A DNA stretch of 64,000 nt from a virus, in the IMG/VR virus record IMGVR_UViG_3300003937_000247. The stretch is one strand, 5' to 3'. Numbering within the stretch: position 1 is the first letter of the stretch; each line of letters starts with the position of its first letter. Position numbers and translations under genes: made by a program. Below, piece by piece: positions 33,319 to 48,887 of the stretch. The notes under the pieces were generated by a model, which was not told the origin of the DNA, ran no database searches, and was given only the letters and a program-made list of their open reading frames with translations.

Positions 33319-33350
33319 ATAGTATTATTTATGCGTATAAATACTACTAT
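33319..33350. promoter_or_regulatory. Imperfect 32-bp palindrome containing divergent late promoter boxes
   Basis: ATAGTATTATTTATGC|GTATAAATACTACTAT; CATAAATA on minus (33326-33333), TATAAATA on plus (33336-33343). Confidence 0.7.
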
Positions 33351-33684
33351 GGCAGCTGTAGCAAATTATACAATAGAACAAGGCACAACATTCAGTTCAG
33401 CAGTAACAGTTAAAGATAATCAAGGAAACGCATTAGATTTAACTGGTTATACTGCTAGTGCAAAAATGGCCTTGGGGTATAGTTCTACGAGAACGAGGAC
33501 AAGTTTTACCTCGGAATTTGATACTGACAGATCAACAGGTATTATAACTATATCTTTGACTGCAACTCAAACTGCCGCTTTGGACGCACCAGCACGTTAT
33601 GTCTTTGATTTAGATATAACAGCGGGTGATGGAACAGTAACAAGAATAATTGAGGGTCTAATAACGGTTAGACCTAACGTATAA
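33349..33684 (+). CDS. Fibre-attachment / adaptor-type virion protein
   Basis: 'ANYTIEQGTTF...DLTGYTA.AKM...G.ITISLTA.QTA.L..RYVFD...TRIIEG..TV.P', a common phage Ig-like adaptor pattern; start at ATG 33349. Confidence 0.7.
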   Translation: MAAVANYTIEQGTTFSSAVTVKDNQGNALDLTGYTASAKMALGYSSTRTRTSFTSEFDTDRSTGIITISLTATQTAALDAPARYVFDLDITAGDGTVTRIIEGLITVRPNV

Positions 33685-33706
33685 TAATAATAAGGAGAAA
33701 TACAAT

Positions 33707-34009
33707 ATGAGTAGTGAAACAATCAACTCAACAGAAACGACAGCAGCACCAACTGCGCCAGTAGAAGCGTCTTTTACAATTGATGGAAAAGACTATAAAA
33801 GAAGTGATTTGTCACCACAATGCTTTAATAGTATTGTTGTAAGACAGGACTTACAAGCAACTAAAGTAAAATTAACATTAGAATTAGAAAAAGTTGCAAT
33901 TTTACAGGCACATTATGATACTGTCATCGCTAAAGATTTAGGTATTGACTTAGCAAAAAAAGTCAAAGAAGACAAATCTAAAACAAACAGCGACGCTAAT
34001 AAAAAATAG
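33707..34009 (+). CDS. Small coiled-coil protein (possible fibre chaperone)
   Basis: AAGGAG RBS; 'FTIDGKDY..SDLS' followed by heptads. Confidence 0.6.
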   Translation: MSSETINSTETTAAPTAPVEASFTIDGKDYKRSDLSPQCFNSIVVRQDLQATKVKLTLELEKVAILQAHYDTVIAKDLGIDLAKKVKEDKSKTNSDANKK

Positions 34010-34050
34010 TTGACATATTAATTATTGATTGATTTAGATTATCTTATTAT

Positions 34051-34058
34051 TATAAATA
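34051..34058 (+). promoter_or_regulatory. T4-type late promoter TATAAATA
   Basis: Exact consensus before the fibre array. Confidence 0.8.
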
Positions 34059-34087
34059 TTGGTAACACAGTATAATAATAGGTAAAA

Positions 34088-34354
34088 ATGTCAAATAATA
34101 TAACTGCGACTTACAGTACAGGCACGAATACAACTGCTACAATTAATAATACTACAACAGGACCAAGGAATGTTTCTGTAACGGCGCCGTCAGTAGCGAA
34201 ATTAACAAAACTTACAGCTTTAAGTGATGTTAACTCTACAACTTTAGACGATGGTGCTATGCTACAATATGATGATTCATCAAAAAAATTTATAACAAGA
34301 ACTGAAATAAAAACTGAAAGTGGAAATTTAGTACTTAACGGTGGCACATTTTAA
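34088..34354 (+). CDS. Small fibre adaptor protein
   Basis: 'LTALSDV......GAMLQYD..SKKF' fibre repeat; ends LNGGTF. Confidence 0.65.
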   Translation: MSNNITATYSTGTNTTATINNTTTGPRNVSVTAPSVAKLTKLTALSDVNSTTLDDGAMLQYDDSSKKFITRTEIKTESGNLVLNGGTF

Positions 34355-34367
34355 CTAGGGAGATAAA

Positions 34368-36719
34368 ATGGCAACTATAATAAAGATTAGAAGAACCACA
34401 GGTGCTAATGCACCCAGCGGTCTTAACCAAGGGGAATTAGCATACGTTTATGATACATCAAATGCTGACAGCGGTGCTGGCGGTAATGGTGTACGATTAT
34501 TCATTGGTGACCCCACATCAACATCCAATTCTGCAATAGAAATTGGTGGTAGATATTACACACAACTTTTAGACCACGCACACGGAACGCTAACAGCGTC
34601 TTCGGGTATAGTAGTAGATTCAAATAAAGCAATTGATGAATTGTTTATTGGAAATAGTGCTACAGTCGGTGGTACAATTAAATTTAACGAAGGCACAAAT
34701 AATGGTGCCCATTTCATAGCACTTAAATCTCCCAATAGTGTTGCGGCTAGCGTTACATTTACATTACCAGCAACTGATGGATCAGATGGTCACGTATTAC
34801 AAACTGATGGATCAGGTGCATTATCATTTGCAGCTCCAGCGTCAAGTTCATTTACACTTGCTGCTGATAGTGGTTCAAGTGATACATTTACGACAGGTCA
34901 AACATTAACAATTGCTGGTGGTACTGGTATTGGTACAACTGTATCAGACAACAATATTTCAGTTGCTATAGACGCAACAGTTGCTACATTAACTGGTTCT
35001 CAAACACTAACAAACAAAACATTAACAAGTCCAACAATCAATACTGGTACTATTAGTTTAGGTGCAAACCTAACTATGGGTGCATATAGTTTAGTTTTTG
35101 AAGGTTCAACAGCGGATGATTTTGAAACAACATTAACAGTTACAGATCCAACTGCTGATAGAACAATTACTTTACCAAATGCAACAGACACATTAGTAGG
35201 TCTTGCAACAACAGATACACTAACAAACAAAACATTAACAAGTGCTGTATTAAACACAGGCGTTAGTGGTTCAGCAATCAAAGATGAAGACGATTTAACT
35301 TCCAATTCTGCTACACATTTAGCAACACAACAAAGTATTAAAGCATATGTTGACTCACAAGTCACAGCACAAGATTTAGATTTTCAAGGTGACTCTGGTG
35401 GTGCTCTTGCAATTGATTTAGATAGTGAAACATTAACAATCGCTGGTGGTACTGGATTAGATTCAGTTGGTTCTGGAAATTCAATAACATTAAACATAGA
35501 CGCAACAGTTGCTACTCTTACAGGTTCACAAACACTAACAAACAAAACAATTGATAGTGCTAGTAATACATTAACATTAGATTTAGGTGAAGGTACTTTA
35601 ACTGGTACAACTGCTGAATTTAATAGTGCATTACAAGATGGTTCTTTTACTACATTAGCAGGAACTGAAACACTAACAAACAAAACTCTTACTGCACCTA
35701 AAATTGCTGACGATGGATTTATCGCTGACGCAAGTGGTAATGAGCAAATTCTTTTCCAAACAACAGCAAGTGCTGTTAATTATTTAGAAGTTACTAACTC
35801 AGCTGCAGGCAATGGCTTTAAAGTCGGAACTGCAGGCGGTGATACAAACATTGATTTAATACTTGATCCTAAAGGTTCTGGTGTTGTTGATGTTAATTCA
35901 AGTAGAATTACAAACGTTACTGATCCAACAGGTGCCCAAGACGCAGCTACAAAAGCTTATGTTGACGCAACTGCAAACGGATTAGATGTAAAAGATTCTG
36001 CAAAACTTGCTACAACAGCTGCATTATCTGCTTGTACATACAATAACGGTAATGGTACTTTAACTGCTGACGCCAATGGCGCTTTATCAGTTGATGGTGT
36101 TGCCGTAGCAGTAAATGATAGAATATTAGTTAAAAATCAAGCCTCAGCGGTACAAAATGGTCTTTACAAAGTAACAGCAACAGGTAGTGGAGGTGCGGCT
36201 TTCGTACTTACAAGAACTCCTGACGCTGACGCAGCTTCAGAAATTACAGGCGGCGCTTTCGTATTCGTTGAATCAGGTACTGCAAATGCTGACAATGGTT
36301 ATGTATTCACACACGATGGTACTCCAACATTAGGTTCAACTAATATTACAGTTTCACAATTCTCTGGTGCTGGTCAAATTAGTGCTGGTAACGCATTAAC
36401 AAAAACTGGTAACACTTTAGATGTTGCTGTTGATGATAGTACGTTAGAGATATCAAGTGACGCTGTACAGATTAAAACAACCTATCCTGGTCAAACATCA
36501 ATTACAACTTTAGGAACTATTGCAACTGGTACTTGGAATGGTACAGCAATTGGTAATATATATGGTGGTACAGGACAAACAACATACACTACTGGTGATA
36601 TGTTATATGCAAGTGGTTCAAACACTCTTGGTAAACTGGCATTAGGTGCAAGTGGTAAAATTTTACAATCAAACGGTAGTAATATAGCATATGGCGATAT
36701 AGACGGCGGTACTTACTAA
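34368..36719 (+). CDS. Tail/fibre protein (783 aa)
   Basis: 'IKIRR..GA.AP..L.QGELAY' N-terminus; TLTNKT repeats; 'DAATKAYVD', 'DRILVKNQ....QNGLY'; ends IDGGTY. Confidence 0.85.
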   Translation: MATIIKIRRTTGANAPSGLNQGELAYVYDTSNADSGAGGNGVRLFIGDPTSTSNSAIEIGGRYYTQLLDHAHGTLTASSGIVVDSNKAIDELFIGNSATVGGTIKFNEGTNNGAHFIALKSPNSVAASVTFTLPATDGSDGHVLQTDGSGALSFAAPASSSFTLAADSGSSDTFTTGQTLTIAGGTGIGTTVSDNNISVAIDATVATLTGSQTLTNKTLTSPTINTGTISLGANLTMGAYSLVFEGSTADDFETTLTVTDPTADRTITLPNATDTLVGLATTDTLTNKTLTSAVLNTGVSGSAIKDEDDLTSNSATHLATQQSIKAYVDSQVTAQDLDFQGDSGGALAIDLDSETLTIAGGTGLDSVGSGNSITLNIDATVATLTGSQTLTNKTIDSASNTLTLDLGEGTLTGTTAEFNSALQDGSFTTLAGTETLTNKTLTAPKIADDGFIADASGNEQILFQTTASAVNYLEVTNSAAGNGFKVGTAGGDTNIDLILDPKGSGVVDVNSSRITNVTDPTGAQDAATKAYVDATANGLDVKDSAKLATTAALSACTYNNGNGTLTADANGALSVDGVAVAVNDRILVKNQASAVQNGLYKVTATGSGGAAFVLTRTPDADAASEITGGAFVFVESGTANADNGYVFTHDGTPTLGSTNITVSQFSGAGQISAGNALTKTGNTLDVAVDDSTLEISSDAVQIKTTYPGQTSITTLGTIATGTWNGTAIGNIYGGTGQTTYTTGDMLYASGSNTLGKLALGASGKILQSNGSNIAYGDIDGGTY

Positions 36720-36756
36720 TCGTCAAATTAATTAATAAGTTAATGGATTTATAGAG

Positions 36757-37206
36757 ATGGCGACAGTTATTAAATTAAAAACAGGAACATCAGCTCCTAC
36801 AACAAGTGATATAACATCACGTGAGGTAGCAATTGATACTTCCGCACAAAAATTTTATATTAATGATAGTGGGACTATTAAAGAAATAGGTGGTGCAACT
36901 ACCTCTACTTTAACTACTTTATCAGACGTATCTGTTACAGGTATTCAAGCAACACAACATTTACATTATGATGGTTCTGAATGGGTAAATGATTACGATT
37001 TTAATATCGGTAAAAGAATTCCATTTACCAAAGCAGACACTACAGCAACAACAATCGCTCTTGTAAATAACAAAGATATGACAACAATAAATGGATTTTT
37101 AGACCATACGGTTTCTCAATCATATTATCTTCCATTTACATTAGCAGCTGGTTCAGCAGTAACAACAATAAGACCAGGGCATATGCCTACATTGGAAGGA
37201 ATTTAA
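36757..37206 (+). CDS. Small fibre adaptor protein
   Basis: 'MATVIKLK.GT.AP...REVAID' N-terminus; 'LTTLSDV...YDGSEWVN' repeat; two '(I/L)PFT' motifs. Confidence 0.65.
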   Translation: MATVIKLKTGTSAPTTSDITSREVAIDTSAQKFYINDSGTIKEIGGATTSTLTTLSDVSVTGIQATQHLHYDGSEWVNDYDFNIGKRIPFTKADTTATTIALVNNKDMTTINGFLDHTVSQSYYLPFTLAAGSAVTTIRPGHMPTLEGI

Positions 37207-37211
37207 TTTAA

Positions 37212-40200
37212 ATGGCAAGTAAAACACCCATAAGAGCCACACTCTCTGGATCAACTGTAACAGGATTAGCTGAATTTCAATCAGGAGATTTTATACCTTT
37301 ATCTGCTGGTGGTATTGGCGCTTCTTTATCAATTGGTTCTGCAGGACAAGTATTAAAAGTAAACACTGGTGCTAGTGCTTTAGAATTTGGTAGTGTAGAA
37401 GCCATCGTAAATATAGACGGTGCAACAGATTTAGAAAGTGCTACATTAGCAGTAGGCGATAAGATATTATTATCTGATGGTGGTACTGAAGGTAGAGTAT
37501 TACTATCTCAACTAGATACTTTATTTTCTGGTACATCAAAAACTCTTACAAACAAAACTATCAATAGTAATGCAAATACTTTACATATTGATTTAGATGA
37601 TTTAGGTACATTTACAGGTACACTTGCAGAATTTAACGCAGGATTACAAGGAGATAGTTTTGTTTCTTTAACAGGAAGTGAAACACTTACAAATAAAACT
37701 TTAACAACACCAACTTTAACAAGTCCTGTTTTAAACACAGGCGTTAGTGGTTCGGCAGTTAAAGATGAAGATAATATGGCAAGTGACTCTGCTACTCACT
37801 TGGCAACACAACAAAGTATTAAAAAATATGTTGATGATTCAATATTAACAAAAGATAATACAGACGAAATTACTGAAGGTTCTACAAACCTTTATTATAC
37901 AAACGCAAGAGCAGACGCTAGAATTACAAATGCTCTTAAAGATGAAGACAATATGGCGTCTGATAGTGCTACTCACGTACCATCGCAACAATCAGTTAAG
38001 GCATATGTTGACGCTACTGTTACAGCAGAAGATTTAGATATTACAACTGATAGTGGTACAATTGCAATTGATTTAGATTCAGAAACATTAACAGTTACAG
38101 GCGGTACTGGATTAGATTCAAGTGCAACTGGTAATGCTGTCACACTTGCTATTGATAGTACGGTTACAACATTAACAGGTTCACAAACATTAACAAACAA
38201 AACTTTAACAAGTGCTGTATTAAATACAGGAGTTTCAGGAAGTGCTATATTAGATGAAGATAATATGGCGACTAATTCTGCTACTCAATTAGCAACACAA
38301 CAAAGTATTAAAGCATATGTTGACGCATTATCACAAGCGTTTACTATTGCTGCTGATAGTGGTTCAAACGATACAGTAACCGTTGGTACAGATACTTTAA
38401 CATTCGCTGGTGGTACAGGTATTGATACAACTGTTTCTAACAATCAGATTTCAAGTGCTATAGACGCAACAGTTGCTACATTAGCAGGTTCACAAACATT
38501 AACGAATAAAACTTTAACAACTCCTGTAATCGCTGAAATAGACGCAACTGGCAACTTTGATATTGACGCTGTTGCTAATGTTAATATAGACTCTGGTAGT
38601 AATATTATATCATTTAGTACAGGTGGTACAGGATTCTTACAACTTCAGAACGATTCAGGAAGTACATGGATTAGAAATACTGGACAAGACAATGATATAA
38701 AATTTGTAGGTAATGATGGTGGAGGAACCATTACAGCTTTAACTATAGATATGTCAGACGGTGGTCACGCAATATTTAATAATGACATTACCGTACCACT
38801 TAATATCTATACTGACGGAAATCTTAATGTAAGAGTAGATAATAAGAAAATAAGAATTGGTGCAGGTGAAGATTTACAACTTTACCACGATGGAACAAAT
38901 TCATATATTACAAATGACCAAGGTGCTTTAAAAATTGCAACAGAAACTTCTGGTATTGCAATTACATTAGGACATGGAACTTCAGAAGTTACAGTTGCTG
39001 ATAATTTAACAGTTGGTGGCAATACTACCATTACAGGAAATTTAAATGTAAATGGTACAACTACAACACTTGCTACAACTAACTCAATAATAGCAGATAC
39101 ACTTATAGAATTAGGTAATGGAGTATCAGGTACTCCTGGTAATGATTCTGGTATCGTAATTGAGAGAGGTGATTTAAATAACGCATTTATAGGATTTGAT
39201 GAGAGTGCTGACAAATTTATCGTTGGTACTGGAACATTTACTGGTGCAAGTACAGGAAATTTAACAATTACAACTGGCACATTGGTTGCAAACGTTGAAG
39301 GTAATGTAACTGGTAACGTAACAGGAAATGCTGACACAGCAACTGCATTAGCAAATGCTAGAACAATTGGTGGAGTATCATTTGATGGTAGTGCCAATAT
39401 TAGTTTACCTGGTGTTAATAGTGCAGGTAATCAGAATACAACAGGATCAGCTGCAACTCTAACAACTGCTAGAACAATTGGTGGAGTATCATTTGATGGT
39501 AGTGCAGCTATTAATTTACCTGGTGTTAATGCCTCAGGTTCACAAGACACATCTGGTAACGCTGCTACGGCAACTAAACTAGCAACTGCTAGAGCAATTG
39601 CTGGTCAAAATTTTGATGGTACTGCAGCTATAACAATTGCGTCAACTGATTTATCTAATACAGCTGCAATCACATTATTAACTGCAAGTCAAACTTTAAC
39701 TAATAAAACATTAACAAGTCCTGTTTTAAATACAGGTGTTTCTGGTAGTGCTATATTAGATGAAGACGCTATGGGTTCAAATAGTGCAACCCAATTAGCA
39801 ACACAACAATCCATTAAAGCATATGTTGACGCTAAAGTTACAGCTGAAGATTTAGACATAACTACAGATTCTGGAACAATCGCAATAGATTTAGATAGTG
39901 AAACTTTAACAGTTACAGGCGGTACTGGATTAGATTCAAGTGCTACAGGCAATGCTGTTACACTTGCTATTGATAGTACAGTTGCAACTTTAACAGGTTC
40001 TCAAACCCTTACGAATAAAACTTTAACTGCTCCAGTTATTGCTACAATTTCAAATACTGGAACATTAACTTTACCTACTTCTACAGATACACTAGTTGGT
40101 AGAGCTACAACAGATACTTTAACAAATAAAACTTTAACAGCACCAAATCTTTCAGGTGTACAAATAACAGACGGCTCACTTGTATTTGAAGGTGCAACCG

Positions 40201-43200
40201 ATGACGCTTACGAAACTACTTTTGCAATTACAGACCCAACAGCAGATAGAACAATTACATTCCAAAATGGTACAGGTACCGTTGCTTTCTTAACAGATGT
40301 AACTGGTGGTTCTACTCCTGGTGCTTTCACAACTATTACACTTAATAACAATATTACTTTTGAAGGCGATACGGCTAACGATTTTGAAACAACTTTAGCA
40401 GTTGTTGATCCTACAGCAGATAGAACAGTTAGTATTCCAGACGCTACAGGTACAGTATCATTAATTGCACATACAGAAACGTTAACAAATAAAACAATTG
40501 ATTTAGGAAACAATACTTTAACTGGTTCTTTAGCAGAATTTAATACTGCTTTACAAGGGGATAGTTTTGTTTCTTTAACTGGTTCTGAAACACTTACGAA
40601 TAAAACAATAACAAGTGCTACTCTAACAAACCCTACTATTGCTCAAATACTCGCAACAACATTTACGTTAAATGCAAGTGCCGACATTACATTAGACGCT
40701 GGTGGCCAAGATATTATTTTATCAGATGATGATACTATTGTTGGTACTATTAGTATGGGTAATTCTGATCTAGCAATTAGATCCAGGGTTTCAGATAAAG
40801 ATTTAATATTTAAAGGTAGTGATGGTGGTTCCGAAATCACAGCATTAACTTTAGATATGTCAGACGCTGGTGCAGCTATATTTAATCACAATGTAACTGT
40901 AGGAAATAATTTAGTAGTTTCAGGTAACTTAACTGTTTCTGGTGATACAACAACTGTTAATACTTCAACATTATCCGTAGAAGATCCATTAATTATAATG
41001 GCGTCTGGTAATAATGCGGCTGACGCTGTTGATATTGGTTTATATGGATTATATGACACAAGTGGTTCACAAGATTTATATTCAGGACTGTTTAGGGATG
41101 CTTCAGATACTAAATGGAAATTATTTAAAGACCTTCAGGCAGCGCCAACTACTACTGTTAATACAAGTGGTACTGGTTATGCAACTGGAACATTAGTTGC
41201 TAATTTAGAAGGAAATGTAACTGGTAATGTTACAGGTAATACATCTGGAACAGCTGCTACGGTTACGACCGCAGCTCAACCTGCAATTACTTCAGTAGGA
41301 ACTTTAACTACTTTACAAGTTGATAATCTTAACATTAATGGCAATACAATATCATCTACAGCAGGTACTGATTTAAATATTACACCATTAACAGGACAAC
41401 AAATTGTATTAGACGGAACAATAATAGTTGACGCTGGTGTAGTTACTGGAGCAACAAGTATTACATCAACTGCATTGGTTGGTGCTTTAACAGGAAACGC
41501 TTCTACAGCAACTGCATTAGAAACTGCTAGAACAATCGCTGGAGTATCTTTTGATGGTACTGCTAATATTGCGATTGCGTCAACAAATTTATCTGATACT
41601 GCTTCAATTGCATTATTAACAGCTTCACAAACTTTAACTAATAAGACATTAACAGCACCAACAATTAACGCAGCTACCGTAACAGGCGCTGTAACATTTG
41701 CTGGCGATGTAAACTTTGACTCTGGTACTTTATTTGTAGATGAAAGCGCAGATAAAGTTGGGATTGGAACGACTACGCCTGCGAGATCATTAGAAATTTC
41801 ACAATCAATTCCAGTAATCAGAATAACAGATACGGACGCTGCCGCTGGATATATGGAAATGGCAGGTGCAGGTGCTGAATTTAAATTTGATTTAGATAAA
41901 GATAACGCTTTAGATAATTCAATATTAACTTTTAGAGTTGATGGTAATTATGTAATGAAATTTAGAGATGGTGCGTCTGAATTTGCTGATGGTAGTGCTG
42001 CTTTTCCAAGTATTACTAACATCGGAGATGTAAACACAGGATTATACTTTAGTGCTGCTGATACAATGGCTTTTTCAGCTGGTGGTACTTCACAATTTAC
42101 AATGGCAGATGGAGTTATAGCTCCTGTTACAGATAGTGATGTTGATCTAGGTACAAACTCTTTACGTTTCAAAAATGCTTATATAGATAGTATCACAGGT
42201 GCTCTTACAGGTAACGCTTCTACAGCAACTACACTTGCAACTGCTAGAACAATTGCAGGTCAAAGTTTTGATGGTTCAGCAAACATAACTATTGCTTCAA
42301 CAGATTTATCAGACACAGCAAGTATTGCTTTATTAACATCAACACAGACTTTAACTAATAAAACTTTAACAACACCTACTATTGCTCAAATTAATGCAAC
42401 TAACTTTTTACTAGACGCTTCAAATAATATTGATATAGACGCTGGTGGTGGAGATGTAACATTTAAAAAAGGTGGTACTGCTTGGGGACTATTCAAAGAA
42501 TCAAGTGGTGACGCTGTATTTGAAGTTAAGACTAACAACAAAGATATGGTCTTCAAAGGTGAAGATGATGGTTCATCTATCACAATGCTTACACTTGATG
42601 GTTCAGACGGTGGTACTGCTATATTCAATAAAGATATAAAACTTGGTGATAGTAAAAACATTGAGTTTGGTGCAAGTGGCGATTTAAGATTATACCACGA
42701 TGGTTCAAATTCGTATATAGATGACGTAGGAACAGGTGCTATTGTCGTTAGAGGTTCAGCAATTAATATACAATCAGATAGTTTAAATCTTAAAAACTAT
42801 GCAGGCGATGAATCATATCTAGTAGGTACAGCAGATGGTGCTGTAGAAATCAGATACGATAATAGTAAGAAATTTGAAACAACATCTTCAGGTGTAACAA
42901 TAACAGGTGCGGCTGTCGCTACTGGATTTACTGGTGCTCTTACAGGAAACGCTTCCACAGCAACTGCATTAGAAACTGCTAGAACAATTGCAGGTGTATC
43001 ATTTGATGGTAGTGCAAATATTGCTATTGCGTCAACTGATTTATCTAACACATCAAATATTACTTTAAATGACGCTTCGCAAACTTTAACGAATAAAACA
43101 TTAACTACTCCTACTATTACAGAAATAGATAGTGGTTCTACAATTACATTAGACGCTACAACAGATATTAATTTAGACGCTGATAGTGGGTATGTTTATC

Positions 43201-44561
43201 TTAAAGACGCAGCTACAGCTGTTGGACTTTTTAAGTTAACTGGATCAGATTTCTATGCCAAATCTGTTGTACAAGATAAAGATATAATATTCCAAGGAAA
43301 TGATGGTGGTTCAACTATCACAGCATTAACTTTAGATATGTCAGACGCTGGTTCTGCTATATTTAATCACAATGCAACTATAGGAAATAATTTAGTAGTT
43401 ACAGGTGACTTAACAGTAAATGGTACAACTACAACTGTTGCAACTACAAATACAACTGTAGCAGACTCACTATTAGAATTAGGAAATGGTACTTCAGGTA
43501 CTCCTTCCAATGACGCTGGTTTAGTAATAGAAAGAGGCGATTCAAATAACGCATTTATAGGATTTGACGAGTCGGCAGATAAGTTCATTGTTGGTACAGG
43601 AACATTTACTGGTGCTTCAACAGGCAATCTAACAATTACAACTGGAACATTAGTTGCTAATTTAGAAGGAAATGTAACTGGTAACGTAACAGGTAATACA
43701 TCTGGTACTGCTGCTACAGTTACAACTGCAGCTCAACCTGCAATTACTTCAGTAGGAACTTTAACAGCTCTTTCAGTTGACAATATAACTATAAACGGCA
43801 ATGATATTTCCTCTACAGCAGGAACAGATTTAACAATAACTCCATTAACAGGACAACAAATTGTACTTGATGGTACAATCGTAATTGACGCAGGTGTAGT
43901 TACAGGTGCAACAAGTATTACAAGTACTGCATTTGTTGGCGCCTTAACAGGAAATGCTAGTACAGCAACATTAGCTTCTTCAGCAACTGCATTAGCAAAT
44001 GCTAGAACAATCGCTGGTCAAAGTTTTGATGGTACTGGTAACATAACAATTGCTTCAACAGATTTATCTGATACTTCTGCTGTTTCATTATTGACTGCAA
44101 GTCAAACATTAACAAATAAAACATTAACAAGTCCTGTAATCAACACAGGTGTTTCTGGTTCTGCTATTGCTGATGAAGACAATATGTCTTCTGATTCGGC
44201 AACGAAATTAGCAACACAACAAAGTATTAAAGCATATGTAGATGGACTAGCTTTATCATTAATTGATGAAGACAATATGTCAAGTGATAGTGCTACACGT
44301 CCACCTTCTCAACAATCAGTTAAGGCTTATGTGGATGATAATGTTTCAAGTGTTTCAGCTTCAAGTACAACTACATTTACTAATAAAACAATATCAGGTT
44401 CATCAAACACAATCACAGGATTAAACGCTGCCAGTATGGGTGGCGGAAGTGTTTCAAACACAGAATTTGACTTTTTAAATGGGGTCACAAGTGCAATTCA
44501 AACACAATTAGATAATAAATCAACGAAAGGTTTTGCTATTGCGATGGCAATTGCATTATAA
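37212..44561 (+). CDS. Giant repeat-rich fibre protein (2449 aa)
   Basis: Many TLTNKTLT, 'DED.M..DSAT.LATQQSIKAYVD', 'ARTI.G.SFDG.ANI' and 'ANLEGNVTGNVTGN' modules; ends GFAIAMAIAL. Confidence 0.85.
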   Translation: MASKTPIRATLSGSTVTGLAEFQSGDFIPLSAGGIGASLSIGSAGQVLKVNTGASALEFGSVEAIVNIDGATDLESATLAVGDKILLSDGGTEGRVLLSQLDTLFSGTSKTLTNKTINSNANTLHIDLDDLGTFTGTLAEFNAGLQGDSFVSLTGSETLTNKTLTTPTLTSPVLNTGVSGSAVKDEDNMASDSATHLATQQSIKKYVDDSILTKDNTDEITEGSTNLYYTNARADARITNALKDEDNMASDSATHVPSQQSVKAYVDATVTAEDLDITTDSGTIAIDLDSETLTVTGGTGLDSSATGNAVTLAIDSTVTTLTGSQTLTNKTLTSAVLNTGVSGSAILDEDNMATNSATQLATQQSIKAYVDALSQAFTIAADSGSNDTVTVGTDTLTFAGGTGIDTTVSNNQISSAIDATVATLAGSQTLTNKTLTTPVIAEIDATGNFDIDAVANVNIDSGSNIISFSTGGTGFLQLQNDSGSTWIRNTGQDNDIKFVGNDGGGTITALTIDMSDGGHAIFNNDITVPLNIYTDGNLNVRVDNKKIRIGAGEDLQLYHDGTNSYITNDQGALKIATETSGIAITLGHGTSEVTVADNLTVGGNTTITGNLNVNGTTTTLATTNSIIADTLIELGNGVSGTPGNDSGIVIERGDLNNAFIGFDESADKFIVGTGTFTGASTGNLTITTGTLVANVEGNVTGNVTGNADTATALANARTIGGVSFDGSANISLPGVNSAGNQNTTGSAATLTTARTIGGVSFDGSAAINLPGVNASGSQDTSGNAATATKLATARAIAGQNFDGTAAITIASTDLSNTAAITLLTASQTLTNKTLTSPVLNTGVSGSAILDEDAMGSNSATQLATQQSIKAYVDAKVTAEDLDITTDSGTIAIDLDSETLTVTGGTGLDSSATGNAVTLAIDSTVATLTGSQTLTNKTLTAPVIATISNTGTLTLPTSTDTLVGRATTDTLTNKTLTAPNLSGVQITDGSLVFEGATDDAYETTFAITDPTADRTITFQNGTGTVAFLTDVTGGSTPGAFTTITLNNNITFEGDTANDFETTLAVVDPTADRTVSIPDATGTVSLIAHTETLTNKTIDLGNNTLTGSLAEFNTALQGDSFVSLTGSETLTNKTITSATLTNPTIAQILATTFTLNASADITLDAGGQDIILSDDDTIVGTISMGNSDLAIRSRVSDKDLIFKGSDGGSEITALTLDMSDAGAAIFNHNVTVGNNLVVSGNLTVSGDTTTVNTSTLSVEDPLIIMASGNNAADAVDIGLYGLYDTSGSQDLYSGLFRDASDTKWKLFKDLQAAPTTTVNTSGTGYATGTLVANLEGNVTGNVTGNTSGTAATVTTAAQPAITSVGTLTTLQVDNLNINGNTISSTAGTDLNITPLTGQQIVLDGTIIVDAGVVTGATSITSTALVGALTGNASTATALETARTIAGVSFDGTANIAIASTNLSDTASIALLTASQTLTNKTLTAPTINAATVTGAVTFAGDVNFDSGTLFVDESADKVGIGTTTPARSLEISQSIPVIRITDTDAAAGYMEMAGAGAEFKFDLDKDNALDNSILTFRVDGNYVMKFRDGASEFADGSAAFPSITNIGDVNTGLYFSAADTMAFSAGGTSQFTMADGVIAPVTDSDVDLGTNSLRFKNAYIDSITGALTGNASTATTLATARTIAGQSFDGSANITIASTDLSDTASIALLTSTQTLTNKTLTTPTIAQINATNFLLDASNNIDIDAGGGDVTFKKGGTAWGLFKESSGDAVFEVKTNNKDMVFKGEDDGSSITMLTLDGSDGGTAIFNKDIKLGDSKNIEFGASGDLRLYHDGSNSYIDDVGTGAIVVRGSAINIQSDSLNLKNYAGDESYLVGTADGAVEIRYDNSKKFETTSSGVTITGAAVATGFTGALTGNASTATALETARTIAGVSFDGSANIAIASTDLSNTSNITLNDASQTLTNKTLTTPTITEIDSGSTITLDATTDINLDADSGYVYLKDAATAVGLFKLTGSDFYAKSVVQDKDIIFQGNDGGSTITALTLDMSDAGSAIFNHNATIGNNLVVTGDLTVNGTTTTVATTNTTVADSLLELGNGTSGTPSNDAGLVIERGDSNNAFIGFDESADKFIVGTGTFTGASTGNLTITTGTLVANLEGNVTGNVTGNTSGTAATVTTAAQPAITSVGTLTALSVDNITINGNDISSTAGTDLTITPLTGQQIVLDGTIVIDAGVVTGATSITSTAFVGALTGNASTATLASSATALANARTIAGQSFDGTGNITIASTDLSDTSAVSLLTASQTLTNKTLTSPVINTGVSGSAIADEDNMSSDSATKLATQQSIKAYVDGLALSLIDEDNMSSDSATRPPSQQSVKAYVDDNVSSVSASSTTTFTNKTISGSSNTITGLNAASMGGGSVSNTEFDFLNGVTSAIQTQLDNKSTKGFAIAMAIAL
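41184..43969 (+). repeat. Internal ~330-bp duplication in giant fibre gene (41184-41512 vs 43641-43969)
   Basis: Near-identical 'TGTLVANLEGNVTGNVTGNTSGTAATVTTAAQPAITSVGTLT...ITPLTGQQIVLDGTI..DAGVVTGATSITST' at DNA and protein level. Confidence 0.8.
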
Positions 44562-44572
44562 ATATATAAATA
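44557..44572 (+). promoter_or_regulatory. Tandem late promoter TATAAATA-TATAAATA
   Basis: Two abutting exact boxes overlapping the giant fibre stop codon. Confidence 0.75.
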
Positions 44573-44585
44573 AGAGAGATATAAT

Positions 44586-44912
44586 ATGGCACAAAATTTT
44601 AGAAGATATATAGCAAGAAACGTTGGGACGTCTGCTTCAACACTTTTTACTGCTAACAGTTACGATACTGTTATAGGTATCGCTTTGGCGAATACAACGT
44701 CAAGTGAAATTAAAGTAGATGTTTATATTAATGATGGATCAAATGACTATTATCTTATAAAAAATGCACCTATTCAAACTGGTGGGGCTTTACAAATTAT
44801 AGACGGAGGAGCAAAATACGTAGTACATTCTGCTGACGTATTAAAAGTAGTATCTGATACTGCTAGTTCTTGTGATGTAGTTGTAAGTACAGTAGATGAT
44901 ATATCAAGTTAG
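44586..44912 (+). CDS. Small beta-rich virion/adaptor protein
   Basis: 'MAQNFRRY...YYLIKNAPI..GGALQIIDGGAK.V....D.LKV.SDTASS.DV.VS.VD'. Confidence 0.7.
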   Translation: MAQNFRRYIARNVGTSASTLFTANSYDTVIGIALANTTSSEIKVDVYINDGSNDYYLIKNAPIQTGGALQIIDGGAKYVVHSADVLKVVSDTASSCDVVVSTVDDISS

Positions 44913-44919
44913 GAAATAA

Positions 44920-45198
44920 ATGGCTTACATAGGAAATAACGTTACACAAACTGCTGTTGATACAACAGATCAAAGATTTGACGAATTTAAGGCAACATCA
45001 ATTGACGCTTCTGCTGTACAGACGATATTTTTAGGCGGAGATGAAACGGCAGTAAGTGGTTCTCCAGAAGACGCTTTCGGCGTTTCTTTGAATAATGTAA
45101 GTGCTGATTGTAATCACAAAACATATAGAAGAATTGATATGGGTAATGTAGTTGCCGTAGTAGGCGTAGTTGACTTTGGTTATGTAGCAAGTTCATAA
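44920..45198 (+). CDS. Small adaptor protein (MAYIGN start)
   Basis: AGGA RBS; MAYIGN N-terminus common in phage fibre genes; ends 'IDMG...VDFGYV'. Confidence 0.65.
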   Translation: MAYIGNNVTQTAVDTTDQRFDEFKATSIDASAVQTIFLGGDETAVSGSPEDAFGVSLNNVSADCNHKTYRRIDMGNVVAVVGVVDFGYVASS

Positions 45199-45260
45199 TA
45201 TTATGAATTTTAGGAAAATAAAGTAACGTAAAAAAAAAGGGAGTTCAAATAACTAAATAT

Positions 45261-45268
45261 TATAAATA
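45261..45268 (+). promoter_or_regulatory. T4-type late promoter TATAAATA
   Basis: Exact consensus upstream of 45306. Confidence 0.8.
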
Positions 45269-45305
45269 ATAGAAGTTAGTTTGTTACAAAAGGGAGAGAA
45301 CAACA

Positions 45306-47957
45306 ATGCCAACAATTTTACAATTAAGAAGAGGTACTACTGCTGAAAACGCTGCCTATACAGGCTCAGTTGGTGAAATAACGGTAGATACTACATTAGA
45401 TAAAGTTATCTTACACGATGGTTCTACTGCAGGTGGTACAACGGTTGGTAACTTACAAGGAGTAATTCAATTAGGTAAGACAGCAACAGGAGAAATAGAC
45501 ACTTCTTCTGGAAATCTTACAATAGATTCAGCAGGTGGCACAGTCGCCATTGACGATAACGCAACAGTTTCAGGAACATTAGGTGTTACAGGAGTAGCAA
45601 CATTTTCTACTCACGTTGCAATGGGCGATAGTGATATTTTAAAAATAGGTGCTGGACCAGATTTAACATTATACCACGACGGAACAAACTCATACATTAC
45701 AAATTCAACAGGTGCTTTAAAAGTTGCAACAGAAACTTCTGGTGTAGCGATTACATTAGGGCACTCAACTTCGGAAGTTACAGTTGCAGATAACCTTACG
45801 GTTACTGGAAACCTTACAGTTTCTGGAACAACAACAACTGTAGATTCTACAACAGTTAATATACAAAATGCTTTTGTTTTTGAAGGTGCAACAGATGACG
45901 CTTACGAAACAACTTTAACAACAGTTGACCCAACAGCAGATAGATCAGTAAGTTTACCAAATGCTACTGATACACTAGTTGGTAAAGCAACAACAGATAC
46001 ACTTACAAATAAATCAATTGATTTAGCAGATAATACACTTACAGGTTCTTTAGCAGAATGGAATAGTGCATTACAAAGTGAAAGTTTTGTTTCATTAACA
46101 GGTTCAGAAACATTAACAAATAAAACTTTAACAACACCAACATTAACTACACCTGTTATTAATACAGGTGCAAGTTTAAAAAATGGTTCATCTAGTGCTG
46201 GTTACGCTGATTTTTATGAAGATAGTGATAACGGTACAAATAGAGTTAGATTAATTGGACCTGCTTCTACAGCAGATGTCACTTTAACTTTACCTGCTTC
46301 TACTGATACATTAGTTGGTAAAGCAACAACAGACACATTTACAAATAAAACATTAACAAGTCCTGTTATTAATACAGCAGTTTCAGGAAGTGCTATACTT
46401 GATGAAGACGCAATGGGATCAAATAGTGCAACTCAACTTGCTACTCAACAATCAATCAAAGCTTATGTTGACGCAAAAGCGACAGCAGCAGATTTAGATT
46501 TAACTTCAGACTCTGGAACAATTGATATTGATTTAGATTCTGAAACATTAACAGTTGCTGGTGGTACTGGAATTGATTCAAGTGCTACAGGTACTACAGT
46601 TACAGTTGCTGTTGACTCAAATGTTGTTCTTTTAACAGATAGTCAAACTTTAACAAACAAAACTTTAACAGCACCAACAATTACAAGTCCTGCAATAAAT
46701 ACAGGAGTTTCAGGTTCTGCCATAAAAGACGAAGACAATATGGCGTCAGATTCTGCTACTCACTTATCAACTCAACAATCAATTAAAGCATACGTTGACT
46801 CAAAAGTAACAGCAGAAGATTTAGATTTAACTACAGACTCTGGAACAATTGATATTGATTTAGACTCTGAAACGTTAACAATCGCTGGTGGTACTGGATT
46901 AACTTCAAGTGCGACAGGAACTACAGCAACACTTGCTATTGACAGTACAGTAACAACATTAACAGGAACACAAACATTAACTAATAAAACATTAACAAGT
47001 GCTGTGTTAACAACACCACAGATTAATGATACTTCAGCGAATCATCAATATGTATTTGCTGTAAGTGAATTAGCAGCAGATAGAACAGTAACTTTACCTT
47101 TACTAACTGGTAATGACCAAGTTACTATGGATGCTCACGCAACTACATTAACTAACAAAACAATTGATTTAGCAGATAATACTGTAACAGGTTCACTTGC
47201 TGAGTTTAATACTGCATTACAAAGTGAAAGTTTTGCTGGTCTTGCGGCTGCACAAACATTAACGAACAAAACTATATCAGGTTCTTCAAACACATTATCT
47301 AATATTGCTAATGGTTCATTAACCAATTCTGCAATAACAGTTTCAGATGGTTCCAATACTACAGCAGTTGCTCTAGGCGGAACAATGACATTTGCTGGAA
47401 CTAATAATGAAGTAGAAGTTGCTGAAAGTTCAGGAACAGTAACTATCGGATTACCTGCTAACGTAACAATCTCTGGAAACTTAACTGTTTCTGGCGATAC
47501 TACTACAGTTAATACTGCAACATTGGCAGTAGAAGACCCATTAATTTCTCTGGCAACAGGAAACAATGCGGCTGACGCTGTTGATATCGGGTTATATGGA
47601 TTGTATGATACATCTGGTTCACAAGACCTTTACGGTGGTATCTTTAGGGATGCTGGCGATGGTAAGTGGAAAGTATTTAAAGACAATCAAGCAGCTCCAA
47701 CAACAACTGTAAACACAAGTGGTACAGGATATGCTGTTGGAACAATTGTTGCAAACCTAGAAGCAACAACTGCTACATTGGGTGGCGTAGATATTTTATC
47801 TACAACTAATAGTAAAACAGTTACGAACAAAACTATTAACTGTTCTAATAATACAATTTCTAATATTGTTTCATCTATGTTTGCTAGTGCTGTAACATTA
47901 CAGATACTAGATTCTGGTGGTTCAACTGTTAAGACAATTGTTGGTTCTGCTACGTAA
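45306..47957 (+). CDS. Fibre protein with Mtd/hyaluronidase-type N-terminus (883 aa)
   Basis: 'LQLRRGTTAEN..YTG..GEITVDT......HDG.TAGG' N-terminus; same fibre modules as the 2449-aa protein. Confidence 0.85.
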   Translation: MPTILQLRRGTTAENAAYTGSVGEITVDTTLDKVILHDGSTAGGTTVGNLQGVIQLGKTATGEIDTSSGNLTIDSAGGTVAIDDNATVSGTLGVTGVATFSTHVAMGDSDILKIGAGPDLTLYHDGTNSYITNSTGALKVATETSGVAITLGHSTSEVTVADNLTVTGNLTVSGTTTTVDSTTVNIQNAFVFEGATDDAYETTLTTVDPTADRSVSLPNATDTLVGKATTDTLTNKSIDLADNTLTGSLAEWNSALQSESFVSLTGSETLTNKTLTTPTLTTPVINTGASLKNGSSSAGYADFYEDSDNGTNRVRLIGPASTADVTLTLPASTDTLVGKATTDTFTNKTLTSPVINTAVSGSAILDEDAMGSNSATQLATQQSIKAYVDAKATAADLDLTSDSGTIDIDLDSETLTVAGGTGIDSSATGTTVTVAVDSNVVLLTDSQTLTNKTLTAPTITSPAINTGVSGSAIKDEDNMASDSATHLSTQQSIKAYVDSKVTAEDLDLTTDSGTIDIDLDSETLTIAGGTGLTSSATGTTATLAIDSTVTTLTGTQTLTNKTLTSAVLTTPQINDTSANHQYVFAVSELAADRTVTLPLLTGNDQVTMDAHATTLTNKTIDLADNTVTGSLAEFNTALQSESFAGLAAAQTLTNKTISGSSNTLSNIANGSLTNSAITVSDGSNTTAVALGGTMTFAGTNNEVEVAESSGTVTIGLPANVTISGNLTVSGDTTTVNTATLAVEDPLISLATGNNAADAVDIGLYGLYDTSGSQDLYGGIFRDAGDGKWKVFKDNQAAPTTTVNTSGTGYAVGTIVANLEATTATLGGVDILSTTNSKTVTNKTINCSNNTISNIVSSMFASAVTLQILDSGGSTVKTIVGSAT

Positions 47958-48044: not shown

Positions 48045-48052
48045 TATAAATA
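48045..48052 (+). promoter_or_regulatory. T4-type late promoter TATAAATA
   Basis: Exact consensus upstream of gp13. Confidence 0.85.
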
Positions 48053-48071: not shown

Positions 48072-48887
48072 ATGGCTAATCCAAATACCAGAGAAACATT
48101 AAAACAGTATGCTTTAAGAACATTAGGCAAGCCTGTTATTGAGATTAACGTTGATGACGATCAATTAGAAGATAGATTAGATGAAGCGTTACAATATTTT
48201 TCACAATATCATTATGATGGTGTTGAGAGAACATACCTTAAATATAAAGTTACACAAGCAGACGTAGATAGAATAATATCTCCTGATGGAGATACTGCTT
48301 CATCAATCACTAAAAATTCAGTTACTACTGCATGGACTGAACAGAATAATTTTATATTAGTTCCAGAAGCCGTATTAGCAGTAACTAGAATATTCCCATT
48401 ATCAAATAGAGGCAATCAAAATATGTTTGATATGAGATATCAATTAAGATTAAACGACCTTTACGATTTTTCATCAACATCAATTATACATTATGATATG
48501 GTGTTAAGACATTTAGATTTTTTAGATCATTTATTAGTAGGTGAAAAACCAGTAAGATTTAATCAATATAATAATAAACTGTTTGTAGATATGGATTGGA
48601 AAACAGACATATCTGTAGGTGAGTTTCTTGTTATTGAATGTTTTAGAAAATTAGATCCAACAGTTATGACAGATGTTTATAATGACATTTATTTAAAACG
48701 ATATGTTACAGCATTAATCAAAAGACAATGGGGTGCTAACTTATCAAAATTCAATGGCGTTGCTATGTTAGGTGGTGTTACTCTTAATGGTCAACAAATA
48801 TTCCAAGAGTCACAAGACGACATAAAAAGATTAGAAGAAGAAATAAGAGGCACATACGAAACGCCTGTAACGTATATGATAGGATAA
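48072..48887 (+). CDS. gp13: Neck protein gp13
   Basis: 'LKQYALR.LGKPVIEINVDDDQ.EDR.DEALQ.F..YHYDG', 'KRQWGANL.KF.G....GGVTLNG'. Confidence 0.95.
   Translation: MANPNTRETLKQYALRTLGKPVIEINVDDDQLEDRLDEALQYFSQYHYDGVERTYLKYKVTQADVDRIISPDGDTASSITKNSVTTAWTEQNNFILVPEAVLAVTRIFPLSNRGNQNMFDMRYQLRLNDLYDFSSTSIIHYDMVLRHLDFLDHLLVGEKPVRFNQYNNKLFVDMDWKTDISVGEFLVIECFRKLDPTVMTDVYNDIYLKRYVTALIKRQWGANLSKFNGVAMLGGVTLNGQQIFQESQDDIKRLEEEIRGTYETPVTYMIG

Follow-up and report, generated by a model that had tools for sequence, protein, structure and literature searches.

Fibre genes and their surroundings

The window, by which is meant the whole analysed stretch of 64,000 nucleotides (nt) of virus DNA (IMG/VR virus record IMGVR_UViG_3300003937_000247), carries between 33349 and 47957 an array of genes in which large tail-fibre genes alternate with small ones. 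With a probability of roughly 0.7, this array encodes segmented host-recognition fibres, the pieces of which would be made separately and joined end to end by two kinds of non-covalent joint. A sequence-only reading of the same DNA had proposed that the C-terminal peptide of each product docks in the N-terminal domain of the next, and the open reading frames (ORFs) and termini that it quoted are present where it placed them. The genes of the array and its downstream border are as follows:

33349..33684, + strand: LtfC-like small beta-sandwich protein (phrog_1084, E 6e-26; phrog_3304, E 3e-16)
33707..34009, + strand: 100-residue protein, kept in the close clade; no match when searched against the Pfam and PHROG families
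34088..34354, + strand: 88-residue piece with an A-type N-terminal module and a type-1 tail (NGGTF, 34337-34351), assigned by the A-family hidden Markov model (HMM) and synteny; ends LNGGTF
34368..36719, + strand: 783-residue fibre with an Mtd_N-like start (first ~30 residues), a shaft and a type-1 tail (DGGTY, 36702-36716), assigned by tail-fibre PHROGs and hhalign; begins MATIIKIRR, ends IDGGTY
36757..37206, + strand: 149-residue adaptor with an Mtd_N-like start (36757-36894) and a type-2 'c' module (about 37009-37203), assigned by hhalign and the c-module HMM; begins MATVIKLK
37212..44561, + strand: 2449-residue fibre with a C-type N-terminal module (37212-37397), a repeat shaft and the end GFAIAMAIAL (44529-44558), assigned through the relatives of its N-terminal module; begins MASKTPIR
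44586..44912, + strand: 108-residue jelly-roll protein, from its AlphaFold2 (AF2) model (predicted local distance difference test, 86; predicted template modelling score, 0.79); begins MAQNFRRY, ends VDDISS
44920..45198, + strand: 92-residue piece with a double type-1 tail (45133-45195), assigned by sequence; begins MAYIGN, ends VDFGYVASS
45306..47957, + strand: 883-residue fibre with a canonical Mtd_N domain (residues 6-41, 45321-45428), assigned by Pfam PF18454 and PDB Mtd; begins MPTILQLRRGTT
48072..48887, + strand: neck protein gp13 (271 residues; T4 gp13-type), with 71% identity to the Mosig neck protein and 59% to that of HTVC008M (phrog_211, E 1e-43)

The ORF of the LtfC-like protein is open from 33331, its relatives begin at the methionine of MAAVAN, and the gene is the first of the array in all relatives; against Pfam PF23926 the protein scores 18.3 bits, under the curated cut-off of 27, and is not counted a member of that family. 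Tail-fibre PHROGs match the large proteins, among which shaft repeats are common in mosaic fashion. Residues 509-668 of the 783-residue protein (35892-36371) resemble chain AE, 'orf22', of PDB entry 9efk (E 4e-18), which is present in 18 copies in that entry, and their PHROG matches bear the names head decoration and tail fiber.

The G+C content of the region is 33-36%, and the source phage is, to judge by its genes, a T4-like pelagimyophage. The host recognition cluster of pelagimyophages is bounded by VrlC on one side and by neck genes on the other (Zaragoza-Solas et al. 2020, PMC7029224); since the gene at 48072-48887 is identified as a neck gene, the fibre array belongs to this cluster. 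The gene order LtfC-like, ~95 residues, 88-92 residues, 682-811 residues, 148-152 residues, giant fibre, 108-110 residues is kept in 40 close IMG/VR relatives, and a further 21 have the order giant, 108, 92, Mtd_N fibre, neck. The chain is also found in Mosig, HTVC008M and Melnitz, with the N-terminal types holding their order across diverged phages; in Melnitz, a Methylophilales phage with a different host, the 149-type protein has 517 residues and the C-type protein 71.

Two kinds of junction

Comparative evidence supports a joint of the kind of T4 gp36→gp37, here called type 1, at three places in the array, 88→783, 783→149 and 92→883. The 88-, 783- and 92-residue proteins all end in D/N-x-G-x-hydrophobic within their last 5-9 residues. 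The motif is often double, with copies ~14 residues apart, and the 92-residue protein has this double form. NGGTF/DGGTY and DFGYV had been taken for distinct tails and are better described as one class; VDFGYV, moreover, is present in the 92-residue protein, three residues (ASS) before its end, and a 107-nt spacer follows. The type-1 spacers of the window (13, 37 and 107 nt) hold the ribosome-binding site. Only one motif pair recurs within the window (n=2, 88→783 and 783→149), so that the case for pairing beyond chance is made by other genomes and not by the window alone. Recent duplication was considered as the origin of the two GGT(F/Y)-MAT junctions and rejected, their DNA alignment being without similarity past the start codons.

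On the receiving side, the 883-residue protein belongs to Pfam PF18454 (Mtd_N; E 5e-11, 42.8 bits, cut-off 26.3) and matches Mtd of PDB entry 1yu4 (E 6e-8). The start of the 149-residue kind (B') aligns with canonical Mtd_N by hhalign with a probability of 93.8% (E 1.8e-7), and that of the 783-residue kind (B) aligns with B' with a probability of 96.5% (E 7.5e-10 over 26 columns). Searched against Pfam at E 0.01, the 783- and 149-residue proteins have no match, and they are called Mtd_N-like by profile comparison, not as Pfam members. The AF2 model of the 149-residue protein is confident only at residues ~10-50, the Mtd_N-like part; a Foldseek search with it gave nothing significant, Mtd ranking 2nd and 12th (E 1.8 and 5).

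Taking all loci of the relatives together, 65/66 unique junctions with a type-1 tail on the upstream side have an Mtd_N-like start on the downstream side, and the tail is found on three gene architectures, of 76-92, 243-316 and 569-811 residues. The same rule appears in other viruses. In 80 sampled IMG/VR loci that carry canonical Mtd_N genes, tails were scanned for the pattern [DN][LFYWCIVM]G.[LIVF], up to three residues being allowed after it. On these unrelated contigs the pattern is present in 41/52 unique tails upstream of canonical Mtd_N genes, against 1/115 control tails from other ORFs of the same loci (0/45 for the tightly coupled ones); among 535 unique tails of the pelagimyophage loci there are four matches, all upstream of canonical Mtd_N genes. 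The upstream ORFs that bear the tail have 74 to >500 codons and encode unrelated proteins. Named examples are BPP-1 bbp9, cyanopodophage S-TIP37, Pseudomonas phage AH02, E. coli phage Minorna, a Syntrophomonadaceae phage and Vibrio phages D181 and 1.021.A. Motif-adjacency statistics across phage genomes, which the sequence-only reading had named as a check on its pairing, thus show the enrichment it called for, here and at the second junction (55/55, below). Literature searches found no paper describing the tail motif or the sequence rule, in a library that was itself incomplete. In Minorna, an E. coli podophage, the short consecutive genes gp11, gp10 and gp09 make two type-1 junctions in series (locus L139, 1749-3301) and would offer a convenient laboratory model for the joint.

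A second conserved joint, unrelated to type 1, is supported at 149→2449. The (I/L)PFT motifs that had been read as terminal lie, as IPFT and LPFT, inside the last ~65 residues of the 149-residue protein, which form the c module; the true end is HMPTLEGI. Over all loci, 55/55 unique junctions with a c module on the upstream side have a C-type start on the other. A profile scan with the C-type start found 519 IMG/VR relatives, and wherever the gene upstream of a C-type start is visible, it ends in a c module. By the c HMM, the carriers of the module have three kinds of N-terminus, B' (148-517 residues), X (383-454 residues) and A (1020 residues). The C-type start was also tried as a variant of Mtd_N (hhalign probability ~1%), and the c and C modules as equivalents of T4 gp35/gp36 (no significant profile matches); both proposals were dropped. 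C-type fibre genes range from 71 residues in Melnitz through 137-800 residues to 2449 (window, 37212-44561; compare loci L045, 15471-15686, and L083, 6001-6414), and fibres of all lengths retain the first ~60 residues and often the last ~10. In most relatives the C-type gene lies directly upstream of neck gp13, which is the place of wac (fibritin) in T4.

At a type-1 joint, the last residues of the upstream trimer would dock on the Mtd_N-like beta-prism of the next protein. T4 gp36→gp37 and, judged from gene order, BPP-1 bbp9→mtd have this kind of joint. At the type-2 joint, the ~65-residue c module at the C-terminal end of the 149-residue adaptor would pair with the first ~60 residues of the 2449-residue fibre. 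The 88-residue protein would then be an anchor module with a tail, and the 149-residue protein a converter from the type-1 to the type-2 joint. We infer both that tails and domains are contact surfaces and that gene order is the order in the fibre.

Fused forms and rival explanations

Further support for the joints comes from genes that appear to do without them. In many relatives a 243-316-residue coiled-coil protein with a type-1 tail is followed by a 177-194-residue protein that combines a B' start with a c module, and in others a single 383-454-residue protein stands in place of both. The clearest instance is the fused 390-residue protein of locus L075, set against the split pair of L059. 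Residues 4-245 align with the upstream piece (E 2e-16) and residues 249-390 with positions 49-190 of the downstream one (77% identity, E 8e-75); between them, four linking residues take the place of the tail and the 48-residue start domain of the split form, and exactly these are missing. Similarly, the 1020-residue fibre of HTVC008M has an A module at residues 3-67 (HMM E 3e-14) and a c module (E 6e-11) with no joints between, and in a 126-residue protein of Mosig the B' start leads directly into a C-terminal end of the giant-fibre type, both the c module and the C-type start being absent. Tail and socket appear to be gained and lost together, as would be expected if a non-covalent joint replaces a peptide bond. 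In loci L062, L069, L096 and L113 the cassette, whether of three genes (coiled-coil piece, B'-c adaptor, C-type fibre) or fused to two, has neighbours other than those found at the T4-like loci and no neck gene downstream, which suggests transfer between phage types.

Several points weigh against end-to-end joining. The start of the 783-residue protein reaches canonical Mtd_N only by way of the B' profile, and a PDB sequence search with the Mtd_N profile for a solved structure of the type-1 joint returned Mtd alone. Some canonical Mtd_N genes follow other ends, namely ..RTY..II in cyanomyophages, a ..FMMMGA group and one ..AIAVALG. In Mosig a 69-residue gene is inserted in one junction (between the 569- and 126-residue proteins). 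Shine-Dalgarno-like GGAG, GAGG or AGGA lies at -16 to -4 of the next start in 34/39 unique positive junctions and can explain part of the G-(S/G) preference of the tail. At the second joint, the c module is poorly folded on its own in an AF2 monomer model, and the facing modules are the most tightly linked DNA, so that co-inheritance alone is no proof of contact. Further along the array, the giant fibre's kind of end (..AIA.A.ALG) belongs, in most relatives, to the final fibre gene, with the neck gene next.

In the cyanomyophages concerned (S-CAM1, S-CAM3, S-SSM7 and S-SCSM2R; loci L140, L144, L146, L148 and L230), the gene before a ~152-residue Mtd_N protein ends ..RTY/F..II and a 36-49-nt spacer follows; this peptide may be another tail type for the Mtd_N domain. 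The ..AIAVALG end, of the giant-fibre kind, stands around position 1500 of locus L184, 4 nt upstream of the canonical Mtd_N gene. The ~69-residue basic protein encoded within the Mosig junction (L001, 5492-5701) is found upstream of the LtfC-like gene in L081 (1602-1811) and L102 (1525-1737), and its changing positions mark it as a movable small gene.

The tail motif might be a mere by-product of translation: G-rich last codons would be imposed by the ribosome-binding site that serves a tightly coupled next gene. The Shine-Dalgarno-like sites just described agree with this, as do the glycine codons of the positive junctions, mostly GGG or GGA, and their gaps, mostly -4 to +2 nt. The tightly coupled control junctions of the same loci, with no motif in any of the 45, rule it out as the whole explanation. 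Such a site leaves the aspartate, aromatic and hydrophobic positions unexplained, and the motif is kept where spacers are 9-107 nt long, those of the window containing the ribosome site. By-product status thus seems very improbable. In loci L151-L230 the ribosome-binding sites of Mtd_N genes commonly lie within the tail codons (GGG AGC, GGA GGT), and in such junctions one DNA stretch is at once a putative docking peptide and a translation signal.

A broader alternative holds that the genes encode parallel, independent fibres or whiskers, each fixed by its own N-terminal domain, and that ends match as linked DNA spared by recombination inside repetitive shafts. The constant order of N-terminal types across diverged phages and the mosaic shafts agree with it, as does the division of the array into several units by TATAAATA boxes (below). 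So does the Mantel correlation across the boundary of the 149/2449 kind (r 0.67, against 0.41 and 0.14 between the two ends of single proteins), which linkage alone predicts; the stronger co-variation of c and C modules across the border fits co-adaptation or plain linkage. Parallel attachment would leave unexplained why tail peptide and start domain are lost jointly in single-polypeptide forms, and why the same tail precedes Mtd_N genes behind unrelated proteins of 74 to >500 residues in unrelated phages. It also fits poorly with T4, where gp36 and gp37 join, and we regard it as unlikely. End-to-end docking is well supported, from sequence comparison, for four of the six junctions proposed (88→783, 783→149, 92→883 and 149→2449), and for these the sequence-only reading is supported; for 2449→108 and 108→92, synteny only can be cited.

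Candidate promoters divide the array. T4-type late promoter boxes (TATAAATA) were located as follows:

33336..33343, + strand: box TATAAATA before the LtfC-like gene
34051..34058, + strand: box before the 88-783-149-2449 unit
44557..44572, + strand: two boxes (44557/44565) overlapping and just past the stop codon of the giant 2449-residue gene
45261..45268, + strand: box before the 883-residue gene, in the 107-nt spacer after the 92-residue gene
48045..48052, + strand: box of the neck gp13 gene

The whole window holds 17 such boxes against 13.5 expected, which is not above chance, and therefore only the positions of boxes ahead of genes are suggestive. They suggest the units [LtfC-like, 100], [88, 783, 149, 2449], [108, 92], [883] and [gp13...]. 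One concatenated or branched appendage of >4,000 residues is not supported by the present evidence; the boxes split the array, and 2449→108→92 is a matter of synteny. Among 34 unique junctions of the giant fibre's end type, the next gene is of the 108-residue family in 16, the neck gene in 16 and another in 2. The AF2 model of the 108-residue protein is an eight-strand jelly roll, matched in BFVD by ~108-residue proteins, some of them named virion structural protein, and in the PDB only weakly, by trimeric cement and knob domains; the protein is probably a virion component. For the 92-residue protein, an origin as the split-off C-terminal domain of the 629-residue fibre of HTVC008M was rejected, as the family HMM gave no match and the likeness is confined to the terminal peptide.

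The small proteins (100, 108 and 92 residues, and LtfC-like) may not be chain links at all; they could be assembly chaperones or tip adhesins of the T4 gp38 or T5 kind. The name of phrog_3304, 'L-shaped tail fiber protein assembly', agrees with such a role, as do the promoter boxes of the 108- and 92-residue genes and the 16 of 34 junctions in which the giant fibre's end leads directly to the neck gene. The match of the 108-residue fold to proteins named virion structural protein speaks against it, and so does the double type-1 tail of the 92-residue protein before an Mtd_N gene; the 88- and 149-residue adaptors are unaffected. We consider this role possible, if rather doubtful. Of the proposal that small proteins act as converters, the part that holds concerns the 88-residue protein, which looks like anchor plus tail, and the 149-residue one, which looks like socket plus connector.

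Should these joints prove to be real contacts, sequence alone could be enough to predict how multi-protein fibres are connected in thousands of uncultured phages, the host-recognition clusters of which are at present lists of 'hypothetical' and 'tail fiber' genes. Small ORFs between large fibre genes would be adaptors, and recombination breakpoints inside shafts would be explained. We would give even odds to a wider proposition, that phage fibres are built with a few portable, orthogonal connectors, the C-terminal D-x-G-x-hydrophobic hairpin on an Mtd_N beta-prism and at least the c module with its C-type start, by which segments of any length (71 to 2449 residues here) are chained, exchanged or fused by recombination, the architecture being readable from gene order in uncultured phages.

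Comparison with known fibre systems

The published account of the pelagimyophage host recognition cluster (PMC7029224) agrees with the present array in genomic place and mentions fibre genes and Mtd domains; unlike the present analysis, it does not describe junction motifs or the connectivity of segments.

Branched and adaptor-built complexes, such as LtfA/LtfB of the T5-like phage DT57C, the tailspikes of CBA120 and G7C and the anchor-branch model of Klebsiella phages, hang receptor-binding proteins on each other through small N-terminal docking domains, T4 gp10-like or other, along the side of an anchor protein. The array resembles them in its LtfC-like opening gene and differs in its evidence for end-to-end joints, no gp10-like domain having been detected in a Pfam search.

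In BPP-1, Mtd occupies the distal fibre end, and its attachment is presumed to be through the N-terminal beta-prism (PMC10743442). The gene upstream of mtd, bbp9, ends ADLGGIA, and the canonical Mtd_N domain of Mtd (PF18454, PDB 1yu0-1yu4) recurs in the 883-residue protein; a PDB sequence search found no solved structure of the contact between Mtd and the fibre. Unlike BPP-1, the window has neither a C-type lectin tip nor a diversity-generating retroelement, and its context is not that of a podovirus.

The closest likeness is to the long tail fibre of T4, in which gp34, gp35, gp36 and gp37 follow one another in gene order and consecutive genes are consecutive segments. Trimeric gp36 binds the N-terminal region of gp37, starting the distal half-fibre (PMC3004832). 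T4 gp36 ends QDFGYY, and residues 6-51 of gp37 match the B' profile (E 5.5e-11), so that the tail type of gp36 and the Mtd_N-like start of gp37 are those of the type-1 joint in the window. To our knowledge there is no residue-level structure of the contact between gp36 and gp37; a defined pair of peptide and domain is now available for testing there. No homologues of T4 gp34, gp35 or the gp36 body were found for the array, and the A, c, C and 92-residue family profiles gave no significant match to T4 gp34-gp38 and do not belong to that gene set. In the window, unlike in T4, the type-1 joint occurs at three points of a single array, a second joint of unrelated kind accompanies it, and the array lies beside a neck gene in the host-recognition cluster. 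Taken together, these comparisons indicate that the array would work like the T4 fibre without belonging to the T4 gene set, and that the proposed mechanism is a variation on that of the T4 long tail fibre, to which a general sequence rule and a second type of joint are added.

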